Source: Carcharhinus amblyrhynchos (Eukaryota). From it: a stretch of DNA of 64,000 bases. Every line of letters begins with the position of its first letter. Position 1 is the stretch's first letter. Shown piece by piece: positions 133 to 63,680 of the stretch. Position numbers and translations under genes: made by a program. The DNA lies in contig OZ336882.1 of the NCBI GenBank assembly GCA_965287045.1, positions 19,592,001-19,656,000 on the forward strand, read 5' to 3'. Under the pieces are notes generated by a model. It made no database searches, was not told where the DNA came from, and worked only from the letters and a program-made list of their open reading frames with translations.

Positions 133-3100
133 TTCATTCATTCACACAGTATGAGTGTCACTGGCTCAGCTATCGTTTATTGTCCATCACTAATTTCCCT
201 TGAGAAGGTGATGGTGCGCTGCCTTCTTGAACTGCCGCAGCCCATGTGGCATAGGTACACCCACAGGGAGCAATTCCAGGATTTTGACCCAATAAAAATG
301 AAAGAGCTGCAGTCTACTTTCAAGTCAGGATGCTAAGTAGCTTGGAGTGAAATTTGCAGATGGTGTGTTCCTATACATCTGCTGCCCTTGTCCTTCTAGG
401 TAGAGGGCACAGATTTAAAAGATGCTATTAAAAGAACCTTGGTTAGTTACTGCAGTGCATCTTATAGGTAATGCACAATGCTGCTACTATGCGTTGGTGG
501 TGGTGCAAGTGAATATATAGAATCATGGATGGGGTGCCAATCAAGCAGGTTCCTTTATCCTGGATGACTTTGAGCTTCTTGAATGTTGTTGGAGTTGTAT
601 TCATCCAGGCAAGTGGAGAGTATTCCTTGACACTCCTTAGTTGTGCCTTGTGTTTGGTAGACAGGCTTATGGTTTAGAGAGTTGGGGGTGAGTTATATGC
701 CACAAAACTCCCAGCTGCTGACTTGCTCTTGTAGCCGGAGTATTTATGTGGCTAGCTTCTAGTTAATGGTAACCTCAGCATATTGATACTGTAGGATTCA
801 GTGATAGTATTGCCATTGAAGAGGAGAGGGGCATGATGGTTAGATACATTCTTCTTGGAGTTGGTCATTGCCTGGCCCTTATCAGACACAAATGGTAGTT
901 GCCATTAATCAGCCCACACCTGAATGTTGTCTGGGTATTTCTGCACATGGACACAGGCTTCAGTAACTGAGGAGCTACGAATGGTTCTGAGCATTGTGCA
1001 ATTATCCGTGAGCTTCCCCAGTCTGGCTTTACGCTTGGACAAACGTCATTAATGAAGTAACTGAAGAGAACTGGGCCGAAGAGACTGCCGTTCGGAACTC
1101 TTGCATTGATGTTCTGGGACTGAGGTGATTGACCTCAACAAGTACAACAATCTTCATCAACTTGTTATGACTCCAAGTAGTGCAAATTTTTCTCCCTGAT
1201 CCCATTGACTTTAGTTTTGCTCTTTGGTGCGACAATTCAAAAAAAGCTGTCCTGATGACAAGGGCAGTCAGATTAATCTTACCTCTTGCGTTCAGCTCTT
1301 TCATCCATCTTTGGACCAAGACAGGAGCTGAGTCGCCCTGGTATAGCCCAAATTGAGCATTAATGATCAGGTCATTTCTGTATAAGTGCCGCTTGATTGC
1401 ACTGTCGACAACCTCTTCCATTGCTTTGATCGAGGGGAAACTAATAGGGCAGGAATTGGTCTGGATGGATTTGGCCTGCTGTTTGTGGGCAGGACTAAGC
1501 TGGGCAATTTTCCACATTGTTGGGTAGATGCTGGTGTTGTGACTGTATTGGAATTGCTTGGCTAGAGTTACGGCGAGTTCTGGAGCACAAGTCTTCAGTA
1601 GAATTGCTGAAATGTTGTCAGGGCTCGTTACATTTGCAGCATCCAGTGCCTTCAACTGTTTCTTGATATCACATGGAGTGTATCGAATTGGGTGAAGGCT
1701 GTTGTGCGACACTTTCACCGTGCTAAATGGAATAGATTTCAAACCAGTTCAGCAACTCAAAACTGGGCATCCATGGGGCATCTGTGATACTGCGGGCCTC
1801 AGGAGCAGACTGAAATAGATCATCCACCTGGCACTTCTGGTTGAAGATAGTCGCAAATGCTTCAGCCTTGTCTTTGACATTGACGTGCTGGGCTCCCCCA
1901 TCGTTCAGTATGGTGATATTTGTTGAGCCTCTTATTATCAGTTATTACAATGTGCACCACGTTCATGACTGCATATGGCAGGTCTGCAGAGCGTAGAGCA
2001 GATCCATCAATTGTGGGTTTGCTTATCTCTGTGTGCCATATGCTGGTTCCATAGTTTATCGTGTAGTAGTCCTGTGTTATAGCTCCATTAGGCTGACACC
2101 TCATTTTTAGTTATCCCTGGTGCTGCTCCTGGCATACACTTCTGCGCTCTTCATTGAACCAGGTTTGATCCCCTGGCTGGGTGGTAATGGTACAGTGGGG
2201 GATATGTCCTACCCATAAGGTTACAGATTGTGGTTGTGTACAGTTCTGCTGCTGTTATTAGCCCACTGTGCCTCATGGATGCCCAAGTTTGAATTGTTAG
2301 ATCTGTTTGAAATCTGTCCTATTTAGCACAGTGGTAGGTAGTGCCGCACAACATGATGAAGGTTATCTTGAGTGTGAGGATGGAACTTTACCTCCACAAG
2401 ATTTAGCGATCACTCCCATCAATACTGTCATGGAGAGATGCATCTGCAATAGGTAGATTATTGAGGATGGAGTCAAGAATGCTTTTCTCTCTTGTTGGTT
2501 TTCTCACCACTTGCTACAGACCCAGTTCATCTCCTTTAGGACACAGTCAGTAATGATGCAATCAAGCCATTCTTGGTGATGGCCATTTCAATCCTCCAAC
2601 CAGAGACCATTGAGCATTGTGAGCCCTTACCATCCTCGGAGCTTCATCCAAGTAGTGTTCAAAGTGGAGGAGCACTGATTCACCAGCTGAGTTGGGGGTG
2701 CGGGAGGAGATGATGGCTGTAAAATTGATTTATTTCTATGTGCCACTCCCATTGTGAAAGTCATCACTATTGGAATAGTGGATCACTCACTGTATTAGCT
2801 GCAGTTGGCTAACCTCTCTGAAAGAATATGCCATTGGATTCTGGACTCGCATGAAACAATTGTTCTTATTTTGTCTGTGGTCTTTGCTGCATATTTCTTT
2901 CTTTCTCTTATTATTCTTTCGTTGTGTCCATGTTTGATGTGATGCCATGAGATATTATGAGGTCCAGGCTTAGAACAATTCCCCCCGGCTGCATACCACT
3001 GTCCTGTTGGGTCTGTCCTGCCATTGGGACAGAATATACACAAGGGTGGTTATAAAGGAGTTTGGGACATTGAATGTAAGGTGTAACTTCTAAGTATGAC

Positions 3101-3580
3101 TTTGTCTGGTGGTTGCTTGACTATCCCTATTTTGATACAAGTTCCCAGGTGTTTGTAAGGAGGACTTTGCAGGATTGACAGAATTGAATTTTCAGAGTTG
3201 TCAGTTCCAATGCCTCGGTAAACGTCCATCAGGTTTCTTTCCTTTTTGTAGTCGTTTTTACTCTTAGACGTACGAGTGGCTTGCAAGACCATTTCAATGC
3301 ATTTAAAAGTCAACCATGTTGCTGTGGGTCTGGAGGCCATACCAGGTAATGACAGCACATTTCATTCCCTAAAGAACATGAGTGAACTAGGTGGGATACT
3401 ATAACAATTGACAACGGTTTGTTAGCCACCATTACTGAGACTAGACTTTAGTTATAGATCTTTTAAGAATTGAATTGAAATTCCATCAGCTACCATGGTT
3501 GGTTTTGAATATGTGTCTATGCAATATTGGCCTTCCCTTCCAGATTATTGGTCCAGTGACATATCACTTTGTCATTGCCT
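133..3580 (-). mobile_element. Decayed near-full-length non-LTR retrotransposon (CR1/L2-group, APE + RT) with a tRNA-like 5' head
   Basis: RT remnant in ORF 1029-1742 (LKTCAPELAVTLAKQFQYSHNTSIYPTMWKIAQ...PISF, AQFG). APE remnants IVKQPPDKVILRSY, GPHNISWHHIKHG and SAGESVLLHFEHYLDEA. Many stops and frameshifts. The 3' end (133-210) matches the tail of the SINE at 9528-9885 and the 5' end (3275-3580) matches that SINE's head. Confidence 0.8.
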
Positions 3581-3914
3581 TGCCATTTAGAAAACATTTT
3601 GATTTTGCTTGTGTCCCAGAACTAAGACCACAATGTACATGTTTATATACACAATATATATTTATGTATGTATCAGCTTGGGTAATTTATAAAATCTTTA
3701 CAAATTGGACAAAGGTTTCACAATGAATCCATTGCTGACTGTAACATGCACTCTCGGAAGTTCCTAGCATTCAGTGTTATACAGCTTTAACTTAAACACC
3801 TTCCAAGCAATCCAGTTTAATGAGACAAACAAGGACAGTAATTCAATTATTTCTTTATTTAATACTTCTAGTATCAACTCAAACATAAACAGTTGCAACT
3901 CACTCCCTCTTTAC

Positions 3915-7355: not shown

Positions 7356-8164
7356 GATCTAGTCATTTACCTAAAAATGCACAATCCATCAGTCATAGCA
7401 CTGCCTGTCTCTTAACAACCATTCCTTCAGTTACAGAGTTAAAACCTTGCCCAGATTCTGCGGTAGAAATAGCAGTGAGGCTATCTCTGGAGTCAAATGG
7501 AGAGCAATTTTTGGCATAAAGTGTCCTAGTTGTTGCCCAGAGAAGCACTCCTACCCCTCCTGGCCCACATGGAAACAGTAAAAAAATTTTAAATGACCTC
7601 ACTGGTCCTTGGATCTAGTTGTCACCAGATCTGCCCATTTTGGTCAGCACTACATGTGGCTCATTAGGGTCCAATTGATGTCATTACGACTTGGTTTTGA
7701 ACATTTCGTAATGCCATTGTTGACCTGTAACAAGTGTGTCACAAGCTTCTTAAACCTGTGAGTTACCGTAGTAGCCAACATCACTGCAGCACGAACGGAA
7801 TTGTAAGTACCCTGCCCCCTCTTTTAGGGCCCTGCATTCCCCATTCTCATTGGATGGATGCAGGGGAGTTATATTTAGAACTATTCTGACGTTCAAATCA
7901 CTGACTGTGTAAAATATGCTTCAATGTTAGCCTACTCCCTCACACTGCTGAATCTGTCAACTCCAGAAGTTAATAGTAGCCAGCAGTGTACCTTCCATTT
8001 TAGGGCAAAAAAGCAATCAAGAAAATACATTTGTTCACACCCAATGTCAGCAGTGTACATTAATGGTTTTAGTTTCTTGTCATCTCCTTGTACTTACTGC
8101 AAAATAGAGAAGTGTGCACACTTTAGGATATCCCAACATGTACACATATCCTCCTTCTAACTAG

Positions 8165-8460
8165 TCGGTGGCATGGTGCACAGTGGTTAGCACTGCTGCC
8201 TCACAGAGCCAGGGACCCAGGTGTGAATCCCAGCTTGGGTCACTGTCTGTGTGGAGTCTGCACGTTCTCCCCCTGTCTGTGTGGGTTTCCTCCCAGTTCT
8301 CCAATTTCCTCTCACAGTTGGAAAGATGTGCTGGTTCAGTGCATTGGCCATGCTAAATTCGCCCTCGGTGTACCCGAACAGCCGTAGCTGATTTTCACAG
8401 TAACTTCATTGCAGTGTTACTGTCAGCCTGCTGTGACAATAATAAATAAACTTTAAACTT
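8165..8460 (+). mobile_element. HE1-like SINE, tail type B
   Basis: Head GCACAGTGGTTAGCACTGCTGCCTCACAG; tail CACAGTAACTTCATTGCAGTG..TGTGACAATAATAAATAAAC. Confidence 0.85.
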
Positions 8461-9354
8461 TTTAGTAACACAAAGATCCTGGAGGATCATCATGACTTGA
8501 AATGTTCACTCTGTTTTTTATAGAATCATCTGTTCGGGGGTTTAGCTGGGTGAATGCGTGGGGTTACAGAGATTTGGCAAGGGGTGGGCCTTAAAAAGAT
8601 CTTCTACCAGAGAGTCAGTGCAGACTCAATGGACCAAATGGCCATCTTTTGCACTGTAGGCATTCAAAGCAAAAGGTAGAGGTGAGGAAACAATGATATG
8701 ACTTACATTGCTTCAGCTCTGTCTTATTGGTTCAAATCCAAATCCAATTCGCAATATATTAAAAATTGAAGTCTTATCCAAATGCTGTGAGGCAGCATGT
8801 CCAGCATGACCCAAGTACCCCTCACACATGTAACTTTATTTCAGAGCCAGGGTACATGCTGCAACAGCCCTGTGATATGAATGATGTTGATATAATCGTA
8901 AGTTATTTTGTTATCAACTTCCTCTACTTGCTACAGTCCTCTTATCTATATTTTCCCAGGTCTGAAAGCCTTTTTTTTAAATTAACTTCAGTAGTCGTCT
9001 GAACCAAATACCATAGTTTCAAGTTCTCAGGATGCATGTGTAATTTGCTGTTTCAGCAGATGGAGAATTGTTTCTGTTCAAATTTATGTTCTGTCTTTAC
9101 TTTTCATTTAACCTTTTTCGTTCATTTCTCTTAATAATCCCCTGCTTTGCTCACTTCAAAGCGTTTGAAGTCAACATTTAATTTGAAGCATTTGCCCAGT
9201 CTATTTTGACAGTCTATTTTGTGCGTTTTGGAGCCTGTTGTAATTCACCATTTCAAGCCAAATATATTTATTTTCTGTAAGGGTGAGATATCTGAAATTT
9301 GGAAATAAAGGTAATGTGCAGACTTCAGTACATAAAACCATTAGACGGAGAAGC

Positions 9355-9527: not shown

Positions 9528-9885
9528 GGGGAGGCGATGGCCTAGTGGTATTATTGCTACACTATTAATCCAGAAACTCAGCGAATGTTCTGGGGACCCA
9601 AATTCAAATCCCGCCATGGCAGATGGTTGAATTTGATTTCAATAAAAAATATCTGGAATTAAGAATGTACTGACGATCATCAAACGATTGTCGATTGTTG
9701 GAAAAACCTACATGGATAATGATTGACCTTTAAGGAAGGAAATCTGCCATCCTTAACTGGTCTGGACGACATGTGACTCCAGAGCCACAACAATATGATT
9801 GACTCTCAACTGCCCTTTAAACAGGGATAGGCAATAATTGTTGGCCAGTCAACAACACTCATATCCCATGAATGAATTAAAAACA
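9528..9885 (+). mobile_element. Second tRNA-derived SINE family (SINE-2 here), full length
   Basis: A box TGGCCTAGTGG at 9538-9548, degenerate B box near 9601-9612, core GGAAGGAAATCTGCC.TCCTT..TGTGACTCCAGAGCCACA, tail GGCAATAA..CCCATGAATGAAT. Several other copies in the window. Confidence 0.85.
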
Positions 9886-10410: not shown

Positions 10411-11038
10411 ATCCCAGCTCAATATGCATCCCATTCAGCTGCATGAGTGAGCTCTCACTCTTTACAGTGCTAATTGTCAAATTTCCAGAGGAGGTGCTTT
10501 TGCTGGTACAGGCTTACTTGTTAATTGTTTCAGGAGGGCTGTAGAAAGGGCTGCAAATTAATTAGGTCAAGATGATGGTTTGGATGAAGGAAGAATTAGA
10601 AATCCAAAAGAAAGTGTCAAGAACAGTGCAGCAATGTAGGTAAAGACAAGCAAAGTGGGGCAAGAAGGGACAAAGAGTTGGGCAGTAACAGTGCATCAGC
10701 GAGTAAGACCTTTCAGGGAATATTAACAAAAAAAGGCTCACTATCTGAATACACAATGGATCCACAATAAGATAGACAACATAGCAACACAAATAAAGAT
10801 AAATACTTCACGCATAATTCCCAGAAAAGTGACATGAGGCTGCATTTTAGACATGACTATCCATCATCTCCCCACGCATCCCAGAGGTCACCCCCATAAT
10901 ACAGGGACCTGGGAGGGCACTGAAATTGGCAGCCCACCTGCCACATTTAAACATGTAATCAAGGGACAATTTGACTTGTTATCAAACAATTGACCCTGAT
11001 AATATGCTGCCAATGCCATGAAATATGATGCCAATGCC

Positions 11039-11601
11039 AGCTGGAGTACTGTGTGTAGTTTTGGGCGCCGCACCTGCGCAAAGATATTTTGGCCTTGGAG
11101 GGAGTGCAGAGGAGGTTTACTAGGCTGATACCGGAGTTGAGGGGGTTGAGCTATGAGGAGAGGCTGAATAAACTAGGCTTGTACTCGTTGGAGTTTAGAA
11201 GAATGAGGGGAGATCTCATTGAGACGTATAAGATGATGAATGGGATGGATAGGATAGAGGTGGAGAGACCCTTCCCGCTCAAAAAAGACAGTAGGACTAG
11301 GGGGCACAGCCTCAAGATAAAGGGGGGGCGTTTTAGAACGGAGTTGAGGAGGAACTTCTTCACTCAAAGGGTGGTGAATCTCTGGAATTCTCTACCCGTT
11401 GAAGTGGTGGAGGCTGCCTCGCTAAATATTTTCAAGAAGCGGGTTGATGGGTTTTTGATAAGAGAGGAGATTAAGGGTTATGGGGAGAGGGCCAGAAAGT
11501 GGAACTGAGCCACGACAGATCAGCCATGATCTTATTGAATGGCGGGGCAGGCTCGAAGGGCCAGATGGCCTACTCCTGCTCCTATTTCTTATGTTCTTAT
11601 G
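11039..11601 (+). mobile_element. Young 5'-truncated CR1 LINE
   Basis: Uninterrupted ORF2 C-terminus (ALEGVQRRFTRLIPELRGLSYEERL...RRNFFTQRVVNLWNSLP...KWN*), 3' UTR and CTTATGTT tail. Nearly identical to 61781-62510 and 63057-63680. Confidence 0.95.
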
Positions 11602-12167
11602 AAACAGTTGGGCGGGAGTGGGCAGTTCAATTTTTTAAAAACATTCTTCACGGGGCAGGAAGGAAGGGGGATTCTCTATTTTGGGGGCTGCCCTTTGCCG
11701 ATCGGGAATGCCTCCCGCCCTAAGATTGAGCCCCAAATTCTTCTCACCAGCCTTCCCCAACCAAAACCCCAGACAATCTGTTTCCAGGGAGTCATTGCTC
11801 CTTCTTCTTGTACCTCATTGCAGTTCTGACAGTGCCCATCAATGTGTGCTTGGCACTGAGGTGAGGGGCAGAAGCTCCATTTAGCTCTTATTTAGCCCCC
11901 CACAATATGTTATGACTGTGGACGGTGGGTTCAGGCTGGCATGGAGTGGGTTGGATGTCCACCAACTTTGTTTATGGGAGAGGGGTTGGTGGAGCCATCC
12001 GCACTCACCCCCTGAGAAATTGATCACAAGGTATCAAGGTTCAGAAATAAATACACATTTCAAAAAAAAAAGGCAAAATGGCAAAGGAGAAGGGAGCCCC
12101 CCCCCCCACTGATAGCAAAGGATAACATAAGAATATTAGTGAAAAAGGATCTTGGCTTGGAAGATCT

Positions 12168-12500
12168 TGGCATGGTGGCACAGTGGTCAGCACTGCTGCC
12201 TCACAGCATCATTGATCCAGATTTGATTCCGACCTCAGGTGACTGTCTGTGTGGAGTTTGCATGTTCTCCCTGTATCTGCGTGGGTTTCCTCTGGATGCT
12301 CCGGTTTCCTCCCACAGTTCAAAGATGTGCAGATTAGGTGGATTGGCCAGGCTAAATCATCCCCTAGTCCCCTAACATTAGCATGATAAATATGTGGGGT
12401 TATGGGGATGAGTTATGGGTTGGGTTATGGGTGGGATTGTTGTAGGTTCAGGCTCAATGGACCAAATGGCCGCCTTCTGCACTGTAGTGATTCTATAATT
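12168..12500 (+). mobile_element. HE1-like SINE, tail type A, flanked by a GAAGATC target-site duplication
   Basis: HE1 head, core and tail A; GAAGATC on both sides. Confidence 0.85.
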
Positions 12501-13554
12501 CGAAGATCAAGAAATGTAATCAGTACGGATGCAGTTTAGAAATAAGAAGAATTAGAAAAATGCTGGGAGTAGGTTAAAGGTCCCCAAAATGTTATGCCAT
12601 TAGGCAGATCATTAAACAAGAAATTGTTGGAGCATGTAATAAAGGCAATGGGCAAATTATTACAGTTCCATTGCAGTCCATTAAATTCAATTGATTTTAG
12701 CGGGACTGGAACATCTCACTGCATGGAGGGGCCATAAAATTCTGCCCAATGTCATAAACGTGGGTCACTTTGATTGGTCCAATCTATAATTTAAAGTGAC
12801 AAAAGTGGTCTGGAAGGTGAGTTTGTAGAATGCTTTTGGGACATTTTCCGAGAGCAACACTCTGTGGAACCAACTCGGGATAAAGCTATTTTAAAACTTG
12901 CATTGTGCAATGAGGCAGAGTTAATTAGTAAACTCACAGTAAAATATCCACTGGGATTTGGTGATTGTAATACAATTGAGTCTCAAGGATCTCATCATCA
13001 CATCCACTGCGGCATCAAGAGTTTGAATGGCTCCTGCTTAGGTTGCACTGAAAGCTGAGATGTTGGCCTTCCGATAAGATATTGTGGAAGTGTCTGCTAA
13101 GTGCTATCAGAGAGCTGGGTACCATTTCCATGTCGGAAAGGATGGGCTGCAGGCTTTGCATGAATCTCTTTGCCAAGTTGAAGTTGGACTGCTCTTTGAT
13201 AGTAACAAGAAGCTGGTTCCAGAGGCCTGCCAATGTACCAAGCATCCCTATCAGCATTCTCCAGTAGTCCACCCCATCCAAGTCTTCATCTCAATCCTCT
13301 GCAACAAGGCACAAATTCCACTCTGTTGTCCTGTGAACTGGCACATGAACTATCCTTTCCCCCAGCCTGGCTGCAGCCCACTCATGCCCACTAATTCACC
13401 ACACACTGACACTGACTCTACACGAGTTTGCACAGTGCCAGCATTTGAGCTGATGCTGTGTTTGCCACATCAGGTGGGCATTTCTTCAACTCTCTTTTGA
13501 GCAGTACCTCAAAGTCAGGAGGACTCTTGCCACAGAGTACTGTGTACACACAGT

Positions 13555-19519: not shown

Positions 19520-20040
19520 TAAACAGCCTGCATGTCCACGATGACTCTCAGCAATTTTTACAGATGCACCATAGAAAGCATCCTTTCTGGATATATCAAA
19601 AGTCGGTACGCTTCCTGCTCTGACCAAGAATGCAAGAAATTACAAAGGGTTGTGAATGTAGCCCCAGTTCATCACGCAAACCAGCCTCCCATCCTTGGAC
19701 TCTGTCTACACTTCCCGCTGCTTTGAAAAAGCAGCCAGCATAATCAAGGACCCCAGGCACCCCAGATATTCACTTTCAACTTCTTCCATCGAGAAAAGTC
19801 TCAGATCACAAACCAACCAACTCAAGAACATTTTCTTCCTTGCTGCAGTCAGATTTTTGAATGAACCTACCTTATACTAAGCTGATCTTGCTCTACACTC
19901 CAGCTCTGTCTGTAACACTACATTCTTACCCTCTCCTTTCCTTCTCCCTCTATGAATGGTATGTTTTGGCTGTGCAAGAAACAATATTTTTCACTGTATC
20001 TCAATACATGTGACAATAATAACTCGAACCAAATCAAAAT
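19520..20040 (+). mobile_element. Rex1/Babar-type LINE 3' fragment
   Basis: MSTMTLSNFYRCTIESILSG..KKLQRVV, AASIIKDPRHP, LKNIFF; (ATCAA)n-like tail. Confidence 0.85.
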
Positions 20041-20382
20041 GGGTGGCACGGTGGTACAGTGGTTAGCACTGCTGCTTCACAGCTCCAGGGTCCTGGGTTC
20101 AGTTCCCGGCTCAGGTCACTGTGTGTGTGGAGTTTGCACGTTCTCCTCGTGTCTGCGTGGGTTTCCTCTGGGTACTCCGGTTTCCTCCCACAGTCCAAAG
20201 ATGTGTGGGTTAGGTTGATTGGCCATGCTAAGAAATTGCCCCTTAGTGTCCAGGGATGCGTAGGTTAGAGGGATTAGTGGGTATAATATGTAGGGATATG
20301 GGGGTAGGACCTGGGTGGGATTGTGTTTGGTGCAGACTCGATGGGCCGAAGGGCCTCTTTCTGCACTGTAGGGATCTATGAT
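20041..20382 (+). mobile_element. HE1-like SINE, tail type A
   Basis: Full head, V-like core and tail GACTCGATGGGCCGAAGGGCCTCTTTCTGCACTGTAGGGAT. Confidence 0.9.
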
Positions 20383-20489
20383 CACAAAATGACAGGGGAT
20401 AGGTGGTTTAGTGAGAGTTTTCCACGTCTGCTTGAAAGACAACGTTAATGTTCTTTTGTAAAGGAGCTTCGTTGTGCAGCTACTCACAC

Positions 20490-31981: not shown

Positions 31982-32827
31982 AAATCTGGGCTGGGACCAG
32001 CTGAACTCAGCAAGACTGCAAGAATAAACCTGGGATATAAACTAGCCTCGTGCACCAGCCATTCATTGCTGAAACCAACTCGGTGTCAGTGAATGTCACT
32101 GATATCACTTTTGAGATAAATGCAGGAACAAACCAAGGCACATGTCAGCTAGTTAACATTACCAGAATAAATGAGCTCAACATTTCAGCACTGGTTTTAT
32201 TGCTATCCCTGAACGTCCCCATCTAGACTTCCACCACTCTCATTAGACACTATACAAAAACTGAACCAAACAATCTGGCAGCATAACTAAACCACAAAAA
32301 GTGGGATCCTGCCACTACTGGAACAAGATTATTGACCAGCTTTATCCTACAGAGGGTGGTCACAGTGAAGTTAAAGTGCCACGGCATTAATTACGAGAAG
32401 AATAAAAGGAGCAATATTGTAAACGTTAAATCTGTTATAATAAAGTCTCATTCTTTTCTGGTTCGAGTGATGCAGTTCACCTGGAGTGTATCTTTTCAAT
32501 TCTGAGATCTGGATCTGATGATCGTTTTAAGTCATTCGTGGGACATGGCCGTCTCTGGCTGGCTAGCACTTATTGCCCATCCCTAGTTGCCCAAGAGCAG
32601 TTGAGAGTCAACCACATGAGCTGAAATGTTGAGCTCTTTTTTTCTGGTAATGTTAACTAGCTGACATGTGCCTTGGTTTGTTCCTGCATTTATCTCAAAA
32701 GTGATATCAGTGACATTCACTGACACCGAGTTGGTTTCAGCAATGAATGGCTGGTGCACGAGGCTAGCTTATATCCCAGGTTTATTCTTGCAGTCTTGCT
32801 GAGTTCAGCTGGCCCCAGCCCAGATTT
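31982..32827. repeat. 208-bp inverted duplication (31982-32189 vs 32620-32827), 430-bp spacer
   Basis: The arms are reverse complements with about 4 mismatches by manual comparison. Confidence 0.95.
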
Positions 32828-33097
32828 GTGATGTGGCTGTGGCTCTGGAGTCACGTGTAGGCCAGGCCAGGTAAGGATGACAGATTTCCTTCCCTAAAGA
32901 ACATTAGTGAACCAGATGGGTTTTTTCCTGACAATTAACAATGGTTTTTGTGGTCATCAATAGACTTTTAATTCCAGACTTTTTTAAAATTGTATTCAAA
33001 ACTCCACCATCTGCCGTGGCGGAATGCAAAATCAGGTCCTCAAAACATTGGCTGAGTTTCTGGATGAATTATGATAATACTGCGAGGCCATCGCGTC
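32530..33097 (-). mobile_element. SINE-2 copy interrupted by the 208-bp inverted insert
   Basis: Core GAGAGTCAACCACAT | GGCTGTGGCTCTGGAGTCAC is split by the insert; remainder matches 9528-9885. Confidence 0.85.
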
Positions 33098-33538
33098 CTA
33101 AAGGCCAGAATTTTACCCTTTACTTTCGGATGTGCTTCCAACGTGGAAGCACTGGAAATCGCCTGATATTTCAGTCAGTGGGCACACATGGGAGTCCTAA
33201 GTGTGCCCGCCAACAATTAGTCACTTCGATAAGGCATTTAAAAGTGCAGGCGACTGGAATTTAACATTTTCCATGTAATTTATCGGTCGGCACCTGGGCA
33301 ACATGGGGAGGCGGCCATCCTGTTGTTTCACTTTTTTCACCCAAGGACAGCATAGAAAGGGGGCTGGAGCATTGGCTACGGGAGTTATTAGGAGTTGAGG
33401 CGAGTTTACTTTAGTCTTGAGATTTCAGACCTTTATCTCTATTATTCTGTTTTGTTCATCTTGTTCTGACGACTTTTGTTTCGTCAACTCAGTTTCTACC
33501 CTTCAGTGCATGGGGCAGTGCCATCTGCATTTCAGTAG

Positions 33539-39830: not shown

Positions 39831-41654
39831 ATAGAAGTCATGGCAAACAAAATTTAGGGTGGGGAGAATTGATATGTATCAGCTTCATCTACTTAATTCT
39901 TGCACCTAAGTGTGTAGCTTTTTGCATTAACATAGTCCTGTTAGCAGCAATTGGTGTTGAATTATAGGCAGCTCTGGGCTGTTCACACAAACCAAATGAC
40001 TTACCCAAACTCACATAGATTTGGATCTTCCCACCAAGCGGAGGAAGGCTGGATTTATATTTACCTTAGAACTAAACCACTCAGGTCTTGACTCCAACTG
40101 TATTCGATATTTGATGTCCTGAAGATTTTGGGAACCTGATGCCAATTAAAATCCTACCTTTTACATTGGAGCAAGGGACCGCATTAGAAATGCAGAATGT
40201 GCAATTCATTCCAGCTGGTTTGTGAATAATTCCTGAACACGGCTCTTTCCGTGGCTTTGGTGTCTAACCTGACTGTAGTGCAGTCTCCCTAATTTGACCT
40301 TTGTTTCAAGGGCACGCGTGCAAGATTAATAAATACCACAGTTCTGCTAGCAGTCACAGGGGTCTGGCAAAAAGGCTGTTGAAGCTGTCATTCCCACAGG
40401 GAGTCTTGGCTTCTACTCATTTTTAACGTAACCTTCTCTGCATTCTCGGGTGCCCTTGAGCACCCCGACTTGTATAATCTTTGACAGCTAGGAGCTCCTG
40501 TAATATTTTAGAGATCACAGCCTAGTGGGAAAATGTGACCGGCTGTTATAAAGCAATGAATTTTAAACCTGGATGGCGACAAATTCAGACTTTCAGTGAC
40601 AAATTGGAAGATTTTTTTTTTGACATCACGTATTCCATTATACGATCTTTCATTGATTTCTGGTTTATATTTTAATCAGTTTCTCTTAATGTGGAATTGT
40701 ATAAATGTTTTTTTTTAAATGTAGATCTCCACTTGCTTCCATAGTTTGAAGGGGGTTTAATAAGGTATGCCTTCCTTTTGCAAGCCTTGTTTGACTGAGC
40801 TGCAGCTCGAGTCAAAAGCAAATAGTGACTGAAGTGAATGATGGGGACTGACTGCCTCTGGCAGAATCTGCTAATCCATCAGTCCAGGATCTGTAACCTT
40901 TACGGCAGTCACAAGCCTGGATGTCAGTCATTGTTCTTTGCTTCAAGCTGTGAAACTGTTTGTCTTTCTCTGTTTTTTCTCTTGCGTGCAATTCACCACA
41001 CCCCCGCCTCCACCACCACCCCCCCCACCTCCTACCCCAAACAGCCACTGCCTTCCCACTCCCCCAACACACACACACACCTTCCGCATTTGTGATTGTC
41101 TCTCTACATTTTCGTCAGCCCTCCTGGTATCTGACCCAGAATCTCTTTTTTTTCTAACATATTTTGTTGGTGTCAAATTTTTATATAGAGGCATTTTCAA
41201 GTGACCCTACTTTAAAAAGGCAATAAGCAGTGCAATTATATCACTGCCAGAGTGATCAGGAAACAAAACTTCAGTGATAATTCATTCTTAGAACAGTAAA
41301 CGTAAATAAAACATGAGGTCCTCGTTTTACCTGGACCTGGTTCTGACATTGAGTATTCCACCAGGAATGAAGGTCCAGCGCTTGTAAAAGTGCCATCATG
41401 CCGGCACCGAGGACTCTCTACTTCTGTTCCTATCCGGAAGTCATTCATTAATTATAAGGGGTGTTCTGCTAAATGCACTTTCAAATGAAACAAATTCACT
41501 TTGTGATCCTTGTACAGTGGCAGGAGACAGCTTGGCGTATATTTAAGTGGAACAAGGAAAGACTTCCATTTGCTGTCGTAAATTGAAATTGACAATGATG
41601 TAAGAATGTTGACATCAGTCTGGAGTAAAGAACCTTTTTCGAATCAGATCTACT

Positions 41655-42152
41655 TTTCTTATTTATGGGGCATGGGCATCGCTGACTGGCCAGCATTTGT
41701 TGTCCATCCCTAGTTGCCCTTAGAGGGCAGTTGAGAGTCAACCACATTGCTGAGATTCTGGAGTCACATGCAGGCCAGATCAGGTAAGGACGGCAGATTT
41801 CCTCCCCTAAAGAGCATTCGTGAACCAGATGGGTTAAGTTGCCCATCAGTGTCAGGAGGATTAGCTAGGGTAAATGCATGGGGTTATGGGGATAGAGGCT
41901 GAGTGGGATTGTGGTCGGTGCTGACTCGATGGGCTGAACGGCCACTTTCTGCACTGTAGGATTCTATGATTCTATGATTTTCTACAATCGACAGTGGTTT
42001 CATGGTGATCAGTAGATTCTTAATTCCCAATTTTTAAAAATTGAATTCAAATTCTACCAGTTGCTATGGCGGGATTCGAATCCAAGCTCCCAGAACCTTG
42101 GCTGAGTTTCTGGATTAATAGTGTAGCAATAACACCGCTAGGCCAGTGCCTC
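41655..42152 (-). mobile_element. SINE-2 copy with an HE1 3' fragment (41836-41978, + strand) nested inside
   Basis: SINE-2 breaks at GAACCAGATGGGTT and resumes at TTTTCTACAATCG. The insert ends in ATTCTATGATTCTATGA. Confidence 0.85.
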
Positions 42153-43013
42153 CCCAATGCAGCCCCTGTTCCAGATCAACTCCAGTAGGAGGAGCGCCAA
42201 CAAATTTCTTCTCACCCAATTATCTCGTCTGCTCTCCCATCCATTTTTCCCCTTTGCAATATCATTTTCCAGGAGAGACGATTCTCCGGCCAGTCGTCTG
42301 TAAAGGGAGCTTCGCAAGTTGTGCAAGAATGCATTACCTTCTGATGGTTTCCCAGGGCAGCGAGCAGAGTAGCTTCCATGATGCAGAACCACCCCTTGCC
42401 CCATTGCCTGAAACAGAATGAGTTTTATAGGGGGAGGGTGGGGAGCAATTAGGGGAAATGCAGAACCCAGTTCTCACCTCGATCACATTCATTTTGTTTA
42501 GCGTTACCAATGAATGTGTACTTTATAAAATGCTGCTGTGAATTTACTGTACATACCTCTACCGGTCGCATTCATAATGTCTATTCCTCCACTGATCCAT
42601 TACGCACTGTTATCTTTGAGATGTTTCATGACCTGCTGTATGCCCAATGGGGAAATGTGTGCTCAGAGATCAGAAGACAGTCTATCTTTATTCAGCTGCT
42701 GTAATCCAACCGAGAAGCTCGGAAAATAATTCTGATCACCACCACAGCTCACCTTGCTCTCATGAATCAATTCCCTCTTACAGTGGGGACACTTACACAG
42801 CCTCTGACACCGGGATGGGGTGCCTAAGAGCAAAGAATGAGTTTTCAGCCGGTGTTAACCTATCAGCCACAGGTCCAAGATGTTTACTCCCAGACATAAC
42901 AGATTGTCTGCTTCTAGCCAATGTGCACTGTGTATAAATCATTTTCTATTTTTCTAGAATGGGGTATTGAGTTGGGTGTGTTGACTCAAGGCTATCGTTG
43001 TATTTTGTTACAG

Positions 43014-52518: not shown

Positions 52519-55199
52519 ATCTGAGAACATTTGTGTTTGCAAAGTGTCTGTAAGTACTGTGTGCAGTGGCAAGTTCCTAATGTCTTATATGGAAAGCGGC
52601 CTGCCTACATAAAGAGCCTGATTATATGCTGAGGGTGAACTCCCCACATTCCACCGTAAATATCAACAACGGGGGCCCACTTTCACTTTGTCAGGTCTTT
52701 CTGCTTCAGTATTTTGGGTAACGGGCCTTTTAATTAGTATGAAGTGCCACTTCCATCTGCCCCCAAGAGGAAGTCCCACCTCACAAACTGCCAGCTATTC
52801 AGAGGCCAACAGCCTTCCATACCAGCATCACCTGCAGAAGCTGTGATAGTCAACGGTGGATCCGGACATTCAGCTACATCCAGGATCTCAGTGGGGCCAC
52901 ACTGATAGGCTCAGAGGAAACATGTTGGAAAGGGGATGACAGGAGGCCAGATGTTGCAAAACAGTGGACAAGGGCACCCCATGGGCACTGGGGAGCTGGC
53001 AGGTAGAAACCCCCACCCCCTTCAACTGGCCATCAACCTACAAGGTTAAGCCTATTAGGCTGCACATTGAACCCCAGCCTCTCCTGCCGCCTGTAAAATC
53101 AGAGCGCTGGCGGGATGAACCTCTTAGGCATTCATTGGCCTATGAGTGGGTGACCCTCCTGACACCTCCATCACTGCTCACAAAATCACAGTGGGAGAAG
53201 ACTAGCCGCTGATGGCACGGTGCCCTAACTTCTGCATCCACCCACCTTCTTTCCAGTAAAATTGAGCCCAAAAACTGGTATTGGCATAGAGACTACAATG
53301 GCAGGGCCTCTGGATTTGTGGGAAAGCAGGTAAGATGTGTCAGAGGCTGCAGAAAGGGAAAATTGTGTGTGATGCCCTCTGCCAACGTAGAGCCACACTC
53401 CTGCATGCAACGAGAGAATTGCAGGAGATTGTCTGGCATCTGGAAGTGAAATGTCATGTCGACCTGAAAAGTCCATTCCCTTTTTCTCGACAGATACTGC
53501 CTGACCTGTTAATCATCTTTCGTTTTTATTTATGGGATGTTTGGGTGTTTGTCATTGGAGCTGTAATCATTGTTGTAATTGTTGTTATTTAAGCTCTAAT
53601 GTGTCTTTATCCCTGTCTCAAGCCCTGTATAACTAGTACAGTCTAGGGTTTTCTGCATTGGCCATCAGTTGACGTGGCTGTTAGCAGGAAATGGATGTGA
53701 GTTTCATTCTGCTAAAACTCAGTCCACTTTCCTCATTGGGGCTGTTGTTTCTGTGTGGTGGGATCCATCTCTTTCAGATGAGAGTTACATTTAGATATGT
53801 ATTTGGGACGTGTTCCTCTTCCCATTCTTTGAGCATGCAAAGGACCAAGCCAAAAGGAGACCCATTCAAAATTCTTAACATCTGTTCTAAACATCTCTGT
53901 GTGTCTCCATTGTGAATGTCTTACTGTTTCTTCCAACTGAAATTCAATTATGTAGGATTGAAGGAATGTACCTGCTGATACCATTTTCCACCAACTTTGA
54001 GACCAGTGTTTGAGAAATACCAATAGGTTGGTTGTCAATCGGGTCCTTGCATTTTGAAGCCTTCCTTTGCTTATAACTCACTCAGCATGAGTTAATTGGC
54101 TGTGATAACATATCTGTTCTGGGGTGCGTTTAAAAGTTCTTTATTTTCATTTTGATTTCTGTTTTCCCTTCACATCTGCTCTCTACATATAACAGACCTG
54201 TCGATGTCCTTTTTGATTGTAATTTTTTTTTAAATGTGGTAAATTGCTTTTCGTAACTTTTCAAATGACCACTGGCTGTTTTTTTAAACTCTCTCTTTGT
54301 ATCCACCTGTGAATTTGAATTCTTGCTCCCACTCATCCCTGCAGGACAGGTGTTTGGCAGCCAGCCAGACAGTGCGGCAATGGTGGAAAAACAGGATAAT
54401 GGAGCAAACCACTTTAAACCACTTCAAGAGCCCAGGTTATTTATTTATTTTTAGGTTTCTTAAAAAGAAATGCTGGAAGAAGCTATGAGCTGTTTTAGAG
54501 GGTGGGTGGAGAGATGCATTAAAGCAAAACAGAAGTTGCAATACCTTTTTGTACTGACAAAATTCAACAGCACTTACACTTGAATTTCAATATAAAATGA
54601 AAAGGTTTGCTTTAATCCTCACATTAATGCTGGAAGTGTAAATTCAGTGTTAAATTCAGAGCTGGTGTTGAAATATAGCAGACTGATACTCCTTGTTATA
54701 TATTTAAGTAGTTGCATGATTGCTTTAAGAGCTGGCTGCATTATTAATAGTGATATCATTAGGGTGTTGCACAGGCTGCCGTTTTAATTTCAGTTTGTAC
54801 TCTGCACAGAGAACATCTCTTTAATAAACCTGTTGTTGTTCGCTGGAATCTATGTGTGCAAACCACATCTTTTTTTTGTTTAAAACCCACAAGCCCTAAC
54901 ATGGTTTTGATATTACACCCCTCCACTGAGGGGGATCCCATTCTGCTTCACACCGGCATTGGGTTCAAAGCTTGACTTCAGATTCAGGTCACATTTACTG
55001 TATAATTGCAAGCATTGATGTGAAGAGAAGACACTTTGCACCAACCTTACATCTGTAGTACAAATTTAGTTGAATATAGGAAGACCGACCTCAACTCACG
55101 AGCAGCATCTCAGAAGAGCACCATGTAGTACAAATTAATGTGTTTTGTTCCTGTTAGACAAGCAAACCAAAGGAATTTATTAAAACTGTCAGCCACAGT

Positions 55200-55540
55200 T
55201 TTTTTTAATTTGTTTGCGGGACAGGGGCGCTACTAGCCTCTATCTCTAGTTGCTCTTGAACCGAGTGGCTTCCTAGGCCATTTCAGAGGACAGTTGAGAG
55301 CCAACCACATTGCTGTGCCTCCGAATTCACATATAGATCAGACTGGGTTAGGACAGCAGATTTCCTTCCCTCAAGGGGTTTTTCGGACAATTGAGAATCG
55401 TTTCATGGTCTTCAGTTAATTGCTAATCTCAGATTTTTTTATTGAACTCCAATTCCACCAGCTGCCATTGTGGAATTTGAACCCAAGTCCCAAGAACATT
55501 AGCTGAGTTTCTAGTCTAGCCACTAGGCCATCACCTCCCC
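55200..55540 (-). mobile_element. SINE-2 copy
   Basis: Reverse-strand match to 9528-9885. Confidence 0.8.
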
Positions 55541-55564
55541 TTTTAGTTTAGTCTATTGGAGCCA

Positions 55565-56364: not shown

Positions 56365-56700
56365 ATTGATATTGTAGTAATGTCACTGGAGAAGTAACCC
56401 AGAGCCCCAGCCCACTCCCTTGCGGGCATGAGTTCAAATCCCGCCATGGTAGTTGGTGGAATTTGACTTAAATTAATAAAAAAAATCTGCATCACAAAGC
56501 TTGTCTCAGTAATGGTGACCGTGACAACCATTATTAGTTGGTGAACTATCTTGTTCACTCATGCCCTTTGTTTAGGGAAGGAAATCTGCCATCCTTACTT
56601 GATTACATGTGACTCCAGCCCTGTAGAAATGTGGTTGACGATTAACTGCCCTCTGGAAATGATCTAACCAAGCCACTCCTTATTCAAGGAAGGGATAAAA
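56365..56700 (+). mobile_element. SINE-2 related copy
   Basis: GTAATGTCACTGGA..GAGTTCAAATCCCGCCATGG..GGGAAGGAAATCTGCCATCCTTAC..TGTGACTCCAG. Confidence 0.8.
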
Positions 56701-61780: not shown

Positions 61781-62510
61781 TAAGAACATAAGAACATAAG
61801 AAATAGGAGCAGGAGTAGGCCATCTGGCCCTTCGAGCCTGCCCCGCCATTCAATAAGATCATGGCTGATCTGTCGTGGCTCAGTTCCACTTTCCCGCCCT
61901 CTCCCCATAACCCTTAATCCCCTCTCTTATCAAAAACCCATCAACCCGCTTCTTAAAAATATTTAGCGAGGCAGCCTCCACCACTTCAACGGGCAGAGAA
62001 TTCCAGAGATTCACCACCCTTTGAGTGAAGAAGTTCCTCCTCAACTCCGTTCTGAACCGCCCCCCCTTTATCTTGAGGCTGTGCCCCCTAGTCCTACTGT
62101 CTTTTTTGAGCGGGAAGAGTCTTTCCACCTCTATCCTATCCATCCCATTCATCATCTTATACGTCTCAATGAGATCTCCCCTCATTCTTCTAAACTCTAA
62201 CGAGTACAAGCCTAGTTTATTCAGCCTCTCCTCATAGCTCAACCCCCTCAACTCCGGTATCAGCCTAGTAAACCTCCTCTGCACTCCCTCCAAGGCCAAA
62301 ATATCCTTGCGCAGGTGCGGCGCCCAAAACTGCACACAGTACTCCAGCTGCGGCCTCACCAATGCCCTATACAGCTGCAGCAAGACCTCCCTACTTTTAT
62401 GTTCAATCCCCCTCGCTATGAAGGCCAGCATCCCATTCGCCTTCCTGACCACCTGCTGCACCTGCACGCTGGGTTTTTGCGACTCATGCACAAGGACCCC
62501 GAGGTCCCTC
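61781..62510 (-). mobile_element. Young 5'-truncated CR1 LINE
   Basis: Uninterrupted 210-aa ORF2 C-terminus (RDLGVLV..LYRALVRPQLEYCVQFWAP..KWN*) and (CTTATGTT)n tail. Confidence 0.96.
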
Positions 62511-63056: not shown

Positions 63057-63680
63057 TAAGAACATAAGAAATAGGAGCAGGAGTAGGCCATCGAGCCCTT
63101 CGAGCCTGCCCCGCCATTCAATAAGATCATGGCTGATCTGTCGTGGCTCAGTTCCACTTTCCCGCCCTCTCCCCATAACCCTTAATCCCCTCTCTTATCA
63201 AGAACCCATCAACCCGCTTCTTAAAAATATTTAGCGAGGCAGCCTCCACCACTTCAACGGGCAGAGAATTCCAGAGATTCACCACCCTTTGAGTGAAGAA
63301 GTTCCTCCTCAACTCCGTTCTAAACCGCCTCCCCTTTATCTTGAGGCTGTGCCCCCTAGTCCTACTGTCTTTTTTGAGCGGGAAGAGTCTCTCCACCTCT
63401 ATCCTATCCATCCCATTCATCATCTTATACGTCTCAATGAGATCTCCCCTCATTCTTCTAAACTCTAACGAGTACAAGCCTAGTTTATTCAGCCTCTCCT
63501 CATAGCTCAATCCCCTCAACTCCGGTATCAGCCTAGTAAACCTCCTCTGCACTCCCTCCAGGGCCAAAATATCCTTGTGCAGGTGCGGCGCCCAAAACTG
63601 CACACAGTACTCCAGCTGCGGCCTCACCAATGCCCTATACAGCTGCAGCAAGACCTCCCTACTTTTATATTCAATCCCCC
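63057..63680 (-). mobile_element. Young 5'-truncated CR1 LINE
   Basis: 167-aa ORF nearly identical to the 61880-62512 ORF; same tail. Confidence 0.96.

Follow-up and report, generated by a model that had tools for sequence, protein, structure and literature searches.

A decayed Zenon LINE with a tRNA-derived head in Carcharhinus amblyrhynchos: probable transcription by RNA polymerase III and short elements built of its two ends

Results

The 64,000-nt stretch of Carcharhinus amblyrhynchos DNA analyzed here (contig OZ336882.1, positions 19,592,001 to 19,656,000; the window) contains at 133..3584, on the minus strand, a whole decayed copy of a LINE that extends from a tRNA-derived head to an A-rich tail. 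By global alignment to the 3,291-nt majority sequence of its family, the copy is of the older type and 76.6% identical over 3,134 columns (overall range, 74-77%), with 28 frame-shifting indels in that single alignment and an eroded A-rich/poly-A end. It is old, broken and dead. Its 5′ end was placed near 3584, which refines an earlier limit of 3580. The head occupies 3490..3584 and retains remnants of an A box (~3574-3564) and a B box (~3510-3502), both degenerate; ARAGORN called no tRNA in the raw 64-kb window. The head is followed by a 5′ UTR body common to the LINE and the short elements (3272..3489), defined by similarity to the short copies and distinct from the Deu domain, and then by a LINE-only leader of ~100 nt (3172..3271) that leads from the shared head to the endonuclease and which, in the family, has an out-of-frame ATG and no in-frame ATG. 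With only these ~100 nt (3271-3172) between the shared part and the first endonuclease sequence, an ORF1 cannot be accommodated, as the first-pass annotation had noted. The APE endonuclease remnant (2405..3171, 3′ limit approximate) corresponds to a stretch of copy L106 that matches Pfam PF14529 and PF03372 above cut-off, and is broken by an insertion at ~2691..2924 (strand not assigned). Seen as a gap in the global alignment and absent from the family majority, this insertion is an unrelated interspersed repeat with at least 39 other matches at 68-84% (best 40 of 115 candidates scored), and two of the matching loci are without Zenon family sequence at the match. The inserted repeat is ~200 nt long. 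A 76-nt inverted duplicate of an internal piece (2269-2353) lies at 1702..1777 on the plus strand and is absent from the other aligned copies. The remainder of the copy, again on the minus strand, comprises the RT and C-terminal remnant up to the family stop codon (193..1701; RT core ~1530-808), for which homologous stretches of L051 and L091 match Pfam RVT_1 above cut-off and the window copy's own 148-aa RT piece has no Pfam match, and a 3′ tail common to the short elements (133..203), which starts within the last ORF codons and is A-rich at its end in most copies. The window copy also has an extra 9-nt stretch that is found in the dogfish Zenon consensuses.

Five short elements in the window match the head at 64-72% identity (E 1e-4 to 6e-21), and together with one fragment (25719-25653) they account for the at least five SINE copies reported at first reading. 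Two lie on the plus strand: a younger-type element at 9528..9885 (head-matching span, 9595-9813), with its head joined to the tail near family nt 290, and an older-type element at 56365..56700 (56380-56678), with a decayed tail. Three lie on the minus strand: one at 55180..55542 (55262-55375), with head joined to tail at family nt 317; one at 41654..42155 (41727-41836), interrupted at 41835-41978 by the 3′ portion of a different SINE; and one at 32525..33098 (32856-33019), split by a 208-nt insertion (32620-32827). All were recognized by head match. The five motifs that had been quoted as shared with the short copies all lie on the minus strand of the LINE, between 3565 and 3300. The SINE tail is absent directly after the head and appears only at ~203-133, at the LINE 3′ end, again as first described.

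Other repeats in the window were recorded as well. The 208-nt sequence that interrupts the short element at 32525..33098 is one of two copies (31982-32189 and 32620-32827) that are 98% alike, in opposite orientation and 430 nt apart; the pair looks like a recent insertion or local inversion. Young CR1-like 3′ fragments at 11038-11601, 61787-62350 and 63057-63618 are 97-98% alike, and near-intact CR1 ORFs are present in several of the loci examined, indicating that CR1 was active far more recently than the Zenon family. A second and more abundant tRNA-headed SINE family, which we take to resemble shark HE1, occurs at 8160-8660, 12160-12510, 20036-20390 and elsewhere (families D1-D9, D12 and D15-D18).

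A head that runs directly into an endonuclease could arise at a single locus if a SINE had inserted by chance next to a 5′-truncated LINE. Both types of repeat are abundant, and most family copies show the usual 5′ truncation (5,709 matches for a 3′ word vs. 336 for an endonuclease word). However, when the 2.9-Gb genome was searched with window positions 2900-3290, a query without head sequence, and the best 40 of 536 candidates were scored, 28 of the 39 other copies obtained in this way, picked by endonuclease sequence alone, continued into the same head on the same strand. Nine of the 39 reach within 20 nt of the family 5′ end. The other 11 end at family nt 323-459; their 700-nt upstream flanks share nothing, and no alternative 5′ end is common among the 39. 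An 18-nt junction word has 611 exact matches in the genome vs. 0 for its reversed control, and the junction recurs in seven published consensuses. Copy L037, used as a second query, overlaps the end of the head and hence does not provide an independent sample; it gave 6,363 candidates, the best 39 at 83-86% identity, and 27 of 38 copies (one of the best 39 was already in the first sample) reach the first 20 nt. The genome-wide check of the junction proposed in the first-pass annotation thus leaves a chance insertion, confined to this locus, with a negligible probability, and the head-to-endonuclease junction is the standard 5′ end of the family. The 39-copy sample and the flank comparison likewise dispose of a LINE with a different 5′ UTR or an ORF1, neither of which is present among the 39 copies. 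No convincing target-site duplication was seen in 13 near-full copies (at best 5-7 nt with one mismatch). An intact copy was not found either: the best DNA match between copies is 86%, and RT matches are 55-74% identical, nearly all with stops.

The majority-rule sequence, built from 20 near-full copies, is 3,291 nt long and begins with four Gs, with an A box at nt 11-21 and a B box at nt 75-83. It consists of the head, the body to nt 317, the leader, one long ORF ending at ~nt 3230 and the A-rich tail; a short A-rich stretch terminates most near-full copies. From nt 294, the ORF stays open over 678 codons and then has one apparent frameshift at ~nt 2200 and a short break at ~nt 2912-3000. Since intact relatives, which align from family nt 387-432 to 3220, do so across both interruptions, we took these for majority-rule artefacts. 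Pfam endonuclease and RT domains were found in single copies (L106, L051 and L091), giving one ORF with APE and RT. The endonuclease starts ~430 nt from the 5′ end, and no ORF of 60 codons lies wholly upstream of it. The majority has no in-frame ATG upstream of the endonuclease: the first occurs at nt 738, within it, and the ATG of the leader, at nt 349, lies in another frame, its spacing to the endonuclease varying among copies. ARAGORN, at its default threshold, called a tRNA in the majority sequence built from seven older LINE heads; for the younger head majority the call came at a 90% threshold, at which 0 of 300 shuffles scored. No tRNA was called in single heads by ARAGORN or by Rfam (two single heads for the latter); the tRNA origin is visible in majority heads only. 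In dead copies, the A box is no better kept than the rest (0.82 vs. 0.88-0.91). The ARAGORN majority calls, the 28 of 39 copies and the seven consensuses agree with the earlier description of a single-ORF LINE with a fixed tRNA-derived head joined to its endonuclease. Among distant relatives (80 metagenome loci) no significant head or 5′ UTR body was found (best profile E 0.41); the single BLAST match, of 44 nt at E 9e-4, falls inside an ORF, relaxed ARAGORN gave noise only, and Rfam returned nothing in the four relatives searched. Antisense to a head, L098:552-703 matches Rfam FTX_4, which covers a conserved part of the FTX lncRNA of mammals, with 30.4 bits (E 0.0077), far short of the gathering score of 80. 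This match is probably due to chance, and could be an old relic.

The LINE of the window is almost certainly an elasmobranch Zenon, of the CR1 group, with a single ORF and no ORF1. Table S2 of Stuart et al. (2026; PMC13343379) contains seven Zenon consensuses from five sharks and rays, and short family words were found in its rows. Over the first 400 nt, CarCar, RhiTyp, ScyCan and HypSab Zenon-1 and SquAca Zenon-1/2/3 have, by eye, the same head, junction and leader, and A-box-like and B-box words are visible there in the shark and ray consensuses. The published elasmobranch consensuses are 2,886-3,314 nt long (vs. 3,291 nt here) and also have a single ORF, no ORF1 and an A-rich tail; for the stingray family, Table S3 of the same paper gives 3 of 612 ORFs as intact. 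In contrast, the coelacanth and two hagfish Zenons in the same table are without this head and have T runs in their first 400 nt. All Zenons, according to that source, lack ORF1 and carry a poly-A tail. The missing ORF1 is therefore ordinary, and the head is the oddity; the absence of ORF1 noted at first reading is real, but it is not a consequence of head capture. The suspicion that the family might already be catalogued was also well founded. It is published as the Zenon-1 consensus of five sharks and rays, so the headed LINE is already present in published consensuses, yet unremarked: the words tRNA, promoter and polymerase III occur 0 times in the main text of PMC13343379, and the head, the loss of T runs and the short derivatives are undescribed there. 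A "CR1-Zenon like LINE" has also been named in a preprint (bioRxiv 10.1101/443036). Protein relatives of the family include one moth and one amphioxus protein, with which it groups in an RT tree (SH-aLRT 89; no labelled Zenon RT in the tree), outside the shark CR1 clade. It departs from a canonical CR1 in that its RT is separate from three shark CR1 ORFs in this tree and it has no ORF1 (esterase). An assignment to the L2 clade, by way of the L2-2_CM tail (PMC5499810), was rejected; the statement in that source concerns SacSINE1, not the LINE family of the window. In two metagenome relatives (L199:400-470; L200:180-210 and 380-420), 5′ UTR words resemble, by eye, the hagfish and coelacanth Zenon 5′ ends in the table of PMC13343379, and Rfam has no match. 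The resemblance suggests a conserved ancestral Zenon leader that would be absent from the shark family.

In split alignments, the short copies consist throughout of the 5′ and 3′ ends of one LINE, as in a short internally deleted element (SIDE). In common with SINE2 elements, they have a head that derives from a tRNA and carries A and B boxes, and a tail also found on the partner LINE. Across the loci examined, a query-biased sample, 208 head matches comprise 91 that continue into LINE, 97 into tail and 20 that do neither. The most common junctions are two, one near nt 290 and the other at nt 317, and each leads to ~nt 3219. Nine of the first 30 loci in genome order among the junction-word matches are short elements, no two of which have the same junction (the 5′ break falls at nt 320-332 and the 3′ break at nt 3157-3222), and several of these private-junction elements retain leader sequence specific to the LINE or coding sequence. 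Joints of the same types are seen in contigs from four public runs. In a tree built from 125 heads, whose bootstrap had not settled, a young clade of 91 rows (support 100/94) unites 46 LINE and 45 short-element heads, older LINE and older SINE heads fall outside it, and an old SINE clade of 18 rows (100/98) is without a LINE head in the sample. The nt-317 junction is carried by both old (18) and young (13) heads. Head and tail types are concordant in 55 of 63 short elements scored (34 ties; P 2e-8), which is weak evidence because several of the tail sites are CpG positions that track age. Six long copies (L063, L087, L092, L105, L070 and L080) have large internal deletions of varied size, which suggests that internal deletion is frequent in the Zenon family.

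Since the short elements share both LINE ends and have two common and many private junctions, repeated internal deletion of the current LINE fits best as their likely source, and that they derive from the LINE at all we regard as probable, if well short of certain. The first-pass annotation had seen the SINE as derived from the LINE by internal deletion. It is indeed built only of the LINE's two ends, but not by one event, given two common and many private junctions and an old SINE clade without a LINE head; a single deletion does not explain the latter, nor the presence of the nt-317 junction on heads of both ages. The same two observations lend some weight to the opposite order, in which a Zenon ORF received its head, and perhaps also its tail, from an existing tRNA-SINE, SINE and LINE ends were since exchanged by template switching, and the main SINE subfamilies did not arise by deletion. 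That SINEs exchange modules is well documented (PMC5499810; PMC5786205), the nt-317 junction leaves room for head exchange between SINE and LINE, and such an origin is compatible with Pol III transcription of the LINE. Yet deletion products do arise, as is evident from the many short elements that still contain, at private junctions, leader specific to the LINE or coding sequence; 134 of 145 tail matches follow the ORF or the head, with the other 11 indicating no second LINE. Nor does the old DeuSINE of chimaera and coelacanth support a SINE-first origin, as the short element is not SacSINE1: even with up to 5 mismatches allowed, the head contains neither of two Deu motifs taken from the PMC5786205 supplement. 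With this identity rejected, the argument that the SINE predates the LINE falls too, and we consider a SINE-first origin rather unlikely and derivation from the LINE the better reading. Deu-like motifs occur in separate repeats at five other loci (L047, L030, L121, L081 and L156), which are probably true SacSINE1 copies.

Four or more consecutive T residues terminate Pol III transcription. On its sense strand, the family majority is devoid of T4 runs, where 4.9 would be expected (P about 0.008), and its T3 runs number 5 vs. 23.5 expected (0 of 1000 shuffles as low). Runs of A, C and G are near expectation; the depletion is strand-specific and limited to T. When the ORF was recoded with the family's own codon usage, T3 runs numbered 3 vs. 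12.2 expected (0 of 1000) and T4 runs 0 vs. 2.0 (P 0.097), and a first-order Markov null gave 2.1 expected T4 runs vs. 0 (P 0.12); the absence of T4 runs alone is not significant under either of these two nulls. The Phe codons TTT and TTC stand at 2:16 vs. 58:98 for other NNY pairs (P 0.035). The sequence of the older class, built from 75 alignments below 80% identity and differing from the majority at 256 positions, also has no T4 run and has 10 T3 runs vs. 24 expected. T4 runs of individual copies are mostly private. T4 runs number 2.1-7.2 per kb in six shark CR1 stretches at the same loci and 8-56 in each of ten metagenome relatives, near or above shuffle expectation.

This loss of T runs likely marks read-through by Pol III, and on such sequence evidence we judge it somewhat more probable than its contrary that Pol III transcribed the LINE. 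The contigs of four public runs, two of them only guessed to be RNA, are uninformative for the start, strand and level of the transcript. Alternatively, the LINE may have been transcribed by Pol II, from an internal promoter in the body or by host read-through, with the tRNA head kept for another use, such as RNA processing or structure, and T runs avoided for reasons unrelated to termination (U-rich decay, cryptic splicing or polyadenylation). A capped RNA would make translation easier to account for, and under neither of the two strictest nulls does the absence of T4 runs reach significance. In the accepted view LINEs are transcribed by Pol II, and weak processivity has been ascribed to Pol III (PMC10886601). 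However, the shark CR1 LINEs of the same loci and the head-less Zenons have T runs, the depletion is limited to T and to the sense strand, and A-box-like and B-box words are visible in the shark and ray consensuses. Pol II transcription therefore seems to us improbable, even a little more so than a SINE-first origin, and the Pol III reading is retained below.

Discussion

In the current study, we characterized a dead, older-type copy of a 3.3-kb single-ORF Zenon of sharks and rays whose head derives from a tRNA and which was, on balance, probably transcribed end to end by Pol III. We envisage that a Zenon ancestor in early elasmobranchs would have acquired the tRNA head through template switching. 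Pol III would start at the first G and could traverse 3.3 kb since terminator-like T runs had been purged. The uncapped RNA would be translated from a non-AUG start, and the LINE protein would prime on the A-rich tail and then reverse-transcribe. Where reverse transcription jumped out of the terminal 60-130 nt into the first 290-330 nt, the product, retaining promoter and tail, would be an immediately working SINE; two such junctions would have been amplified widely. The need to translate an uncapped RNA without an in-frame AUG counts against Pol III. For the combined picture of an autonomous coding retrotransposon, with 3.3 kb transcribed by Pol III, translated without cap or AUG and maintained in both sharks and rays, and with simple internal deletions that would yield complete SINEs at once, without a separate tRNA fusion, the sequences point about equally in either direction.

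The textbook split assigns coding LINEs to Pol II and regards SINEs as short parasites, transcribed by Pol III, that have only the tail in common with LINEs; Pol III normally makes only short non-coding RNAs. A LINE with a Pol III head that has lost terminators across its ORF would, if true, break this split. It would also be a naturally occurring example of a long message made by Pol III and translated uncapped, and would reveal how SINEs can form in one step. For the annotation of shark repeats, Zenon 5′ ends and short elements are likely filed apart.

Several known systems resemble parts of this arrangement. The SacSINE1 and DeuSINEs of sharks (PMC5499810; PMC4824008) are also tRNA-headed and mobilized by a CR1-group LINE; the short elements described here are set apart from them by a body without the two Deu motifs at up to 5 mismatches. 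Persaeus, the short element that lepidopteran Zenon yields by internal deletion (PMC6740152), is likewise made of the 5′ and 3′ ends of its LINE, with repeated origin and variable breakpoints. It is described there as having no tRNA homology and no Pol III promoter, whereas the shark deletion product has a tRNA head with A and B boxes and is therefore a SINE by definition. Published SINEs with both 5′ and 3′ LINE parts are similar as well, and one LINE family is noted in that description with tRNA-like sequence; RTE-1_DAn is mentioned there merely as a source of matches to remove. In those SINEs, as described, the tRNA head was added to the deleted element, whereas in the shark Zenon the head is already on the coding LINE.
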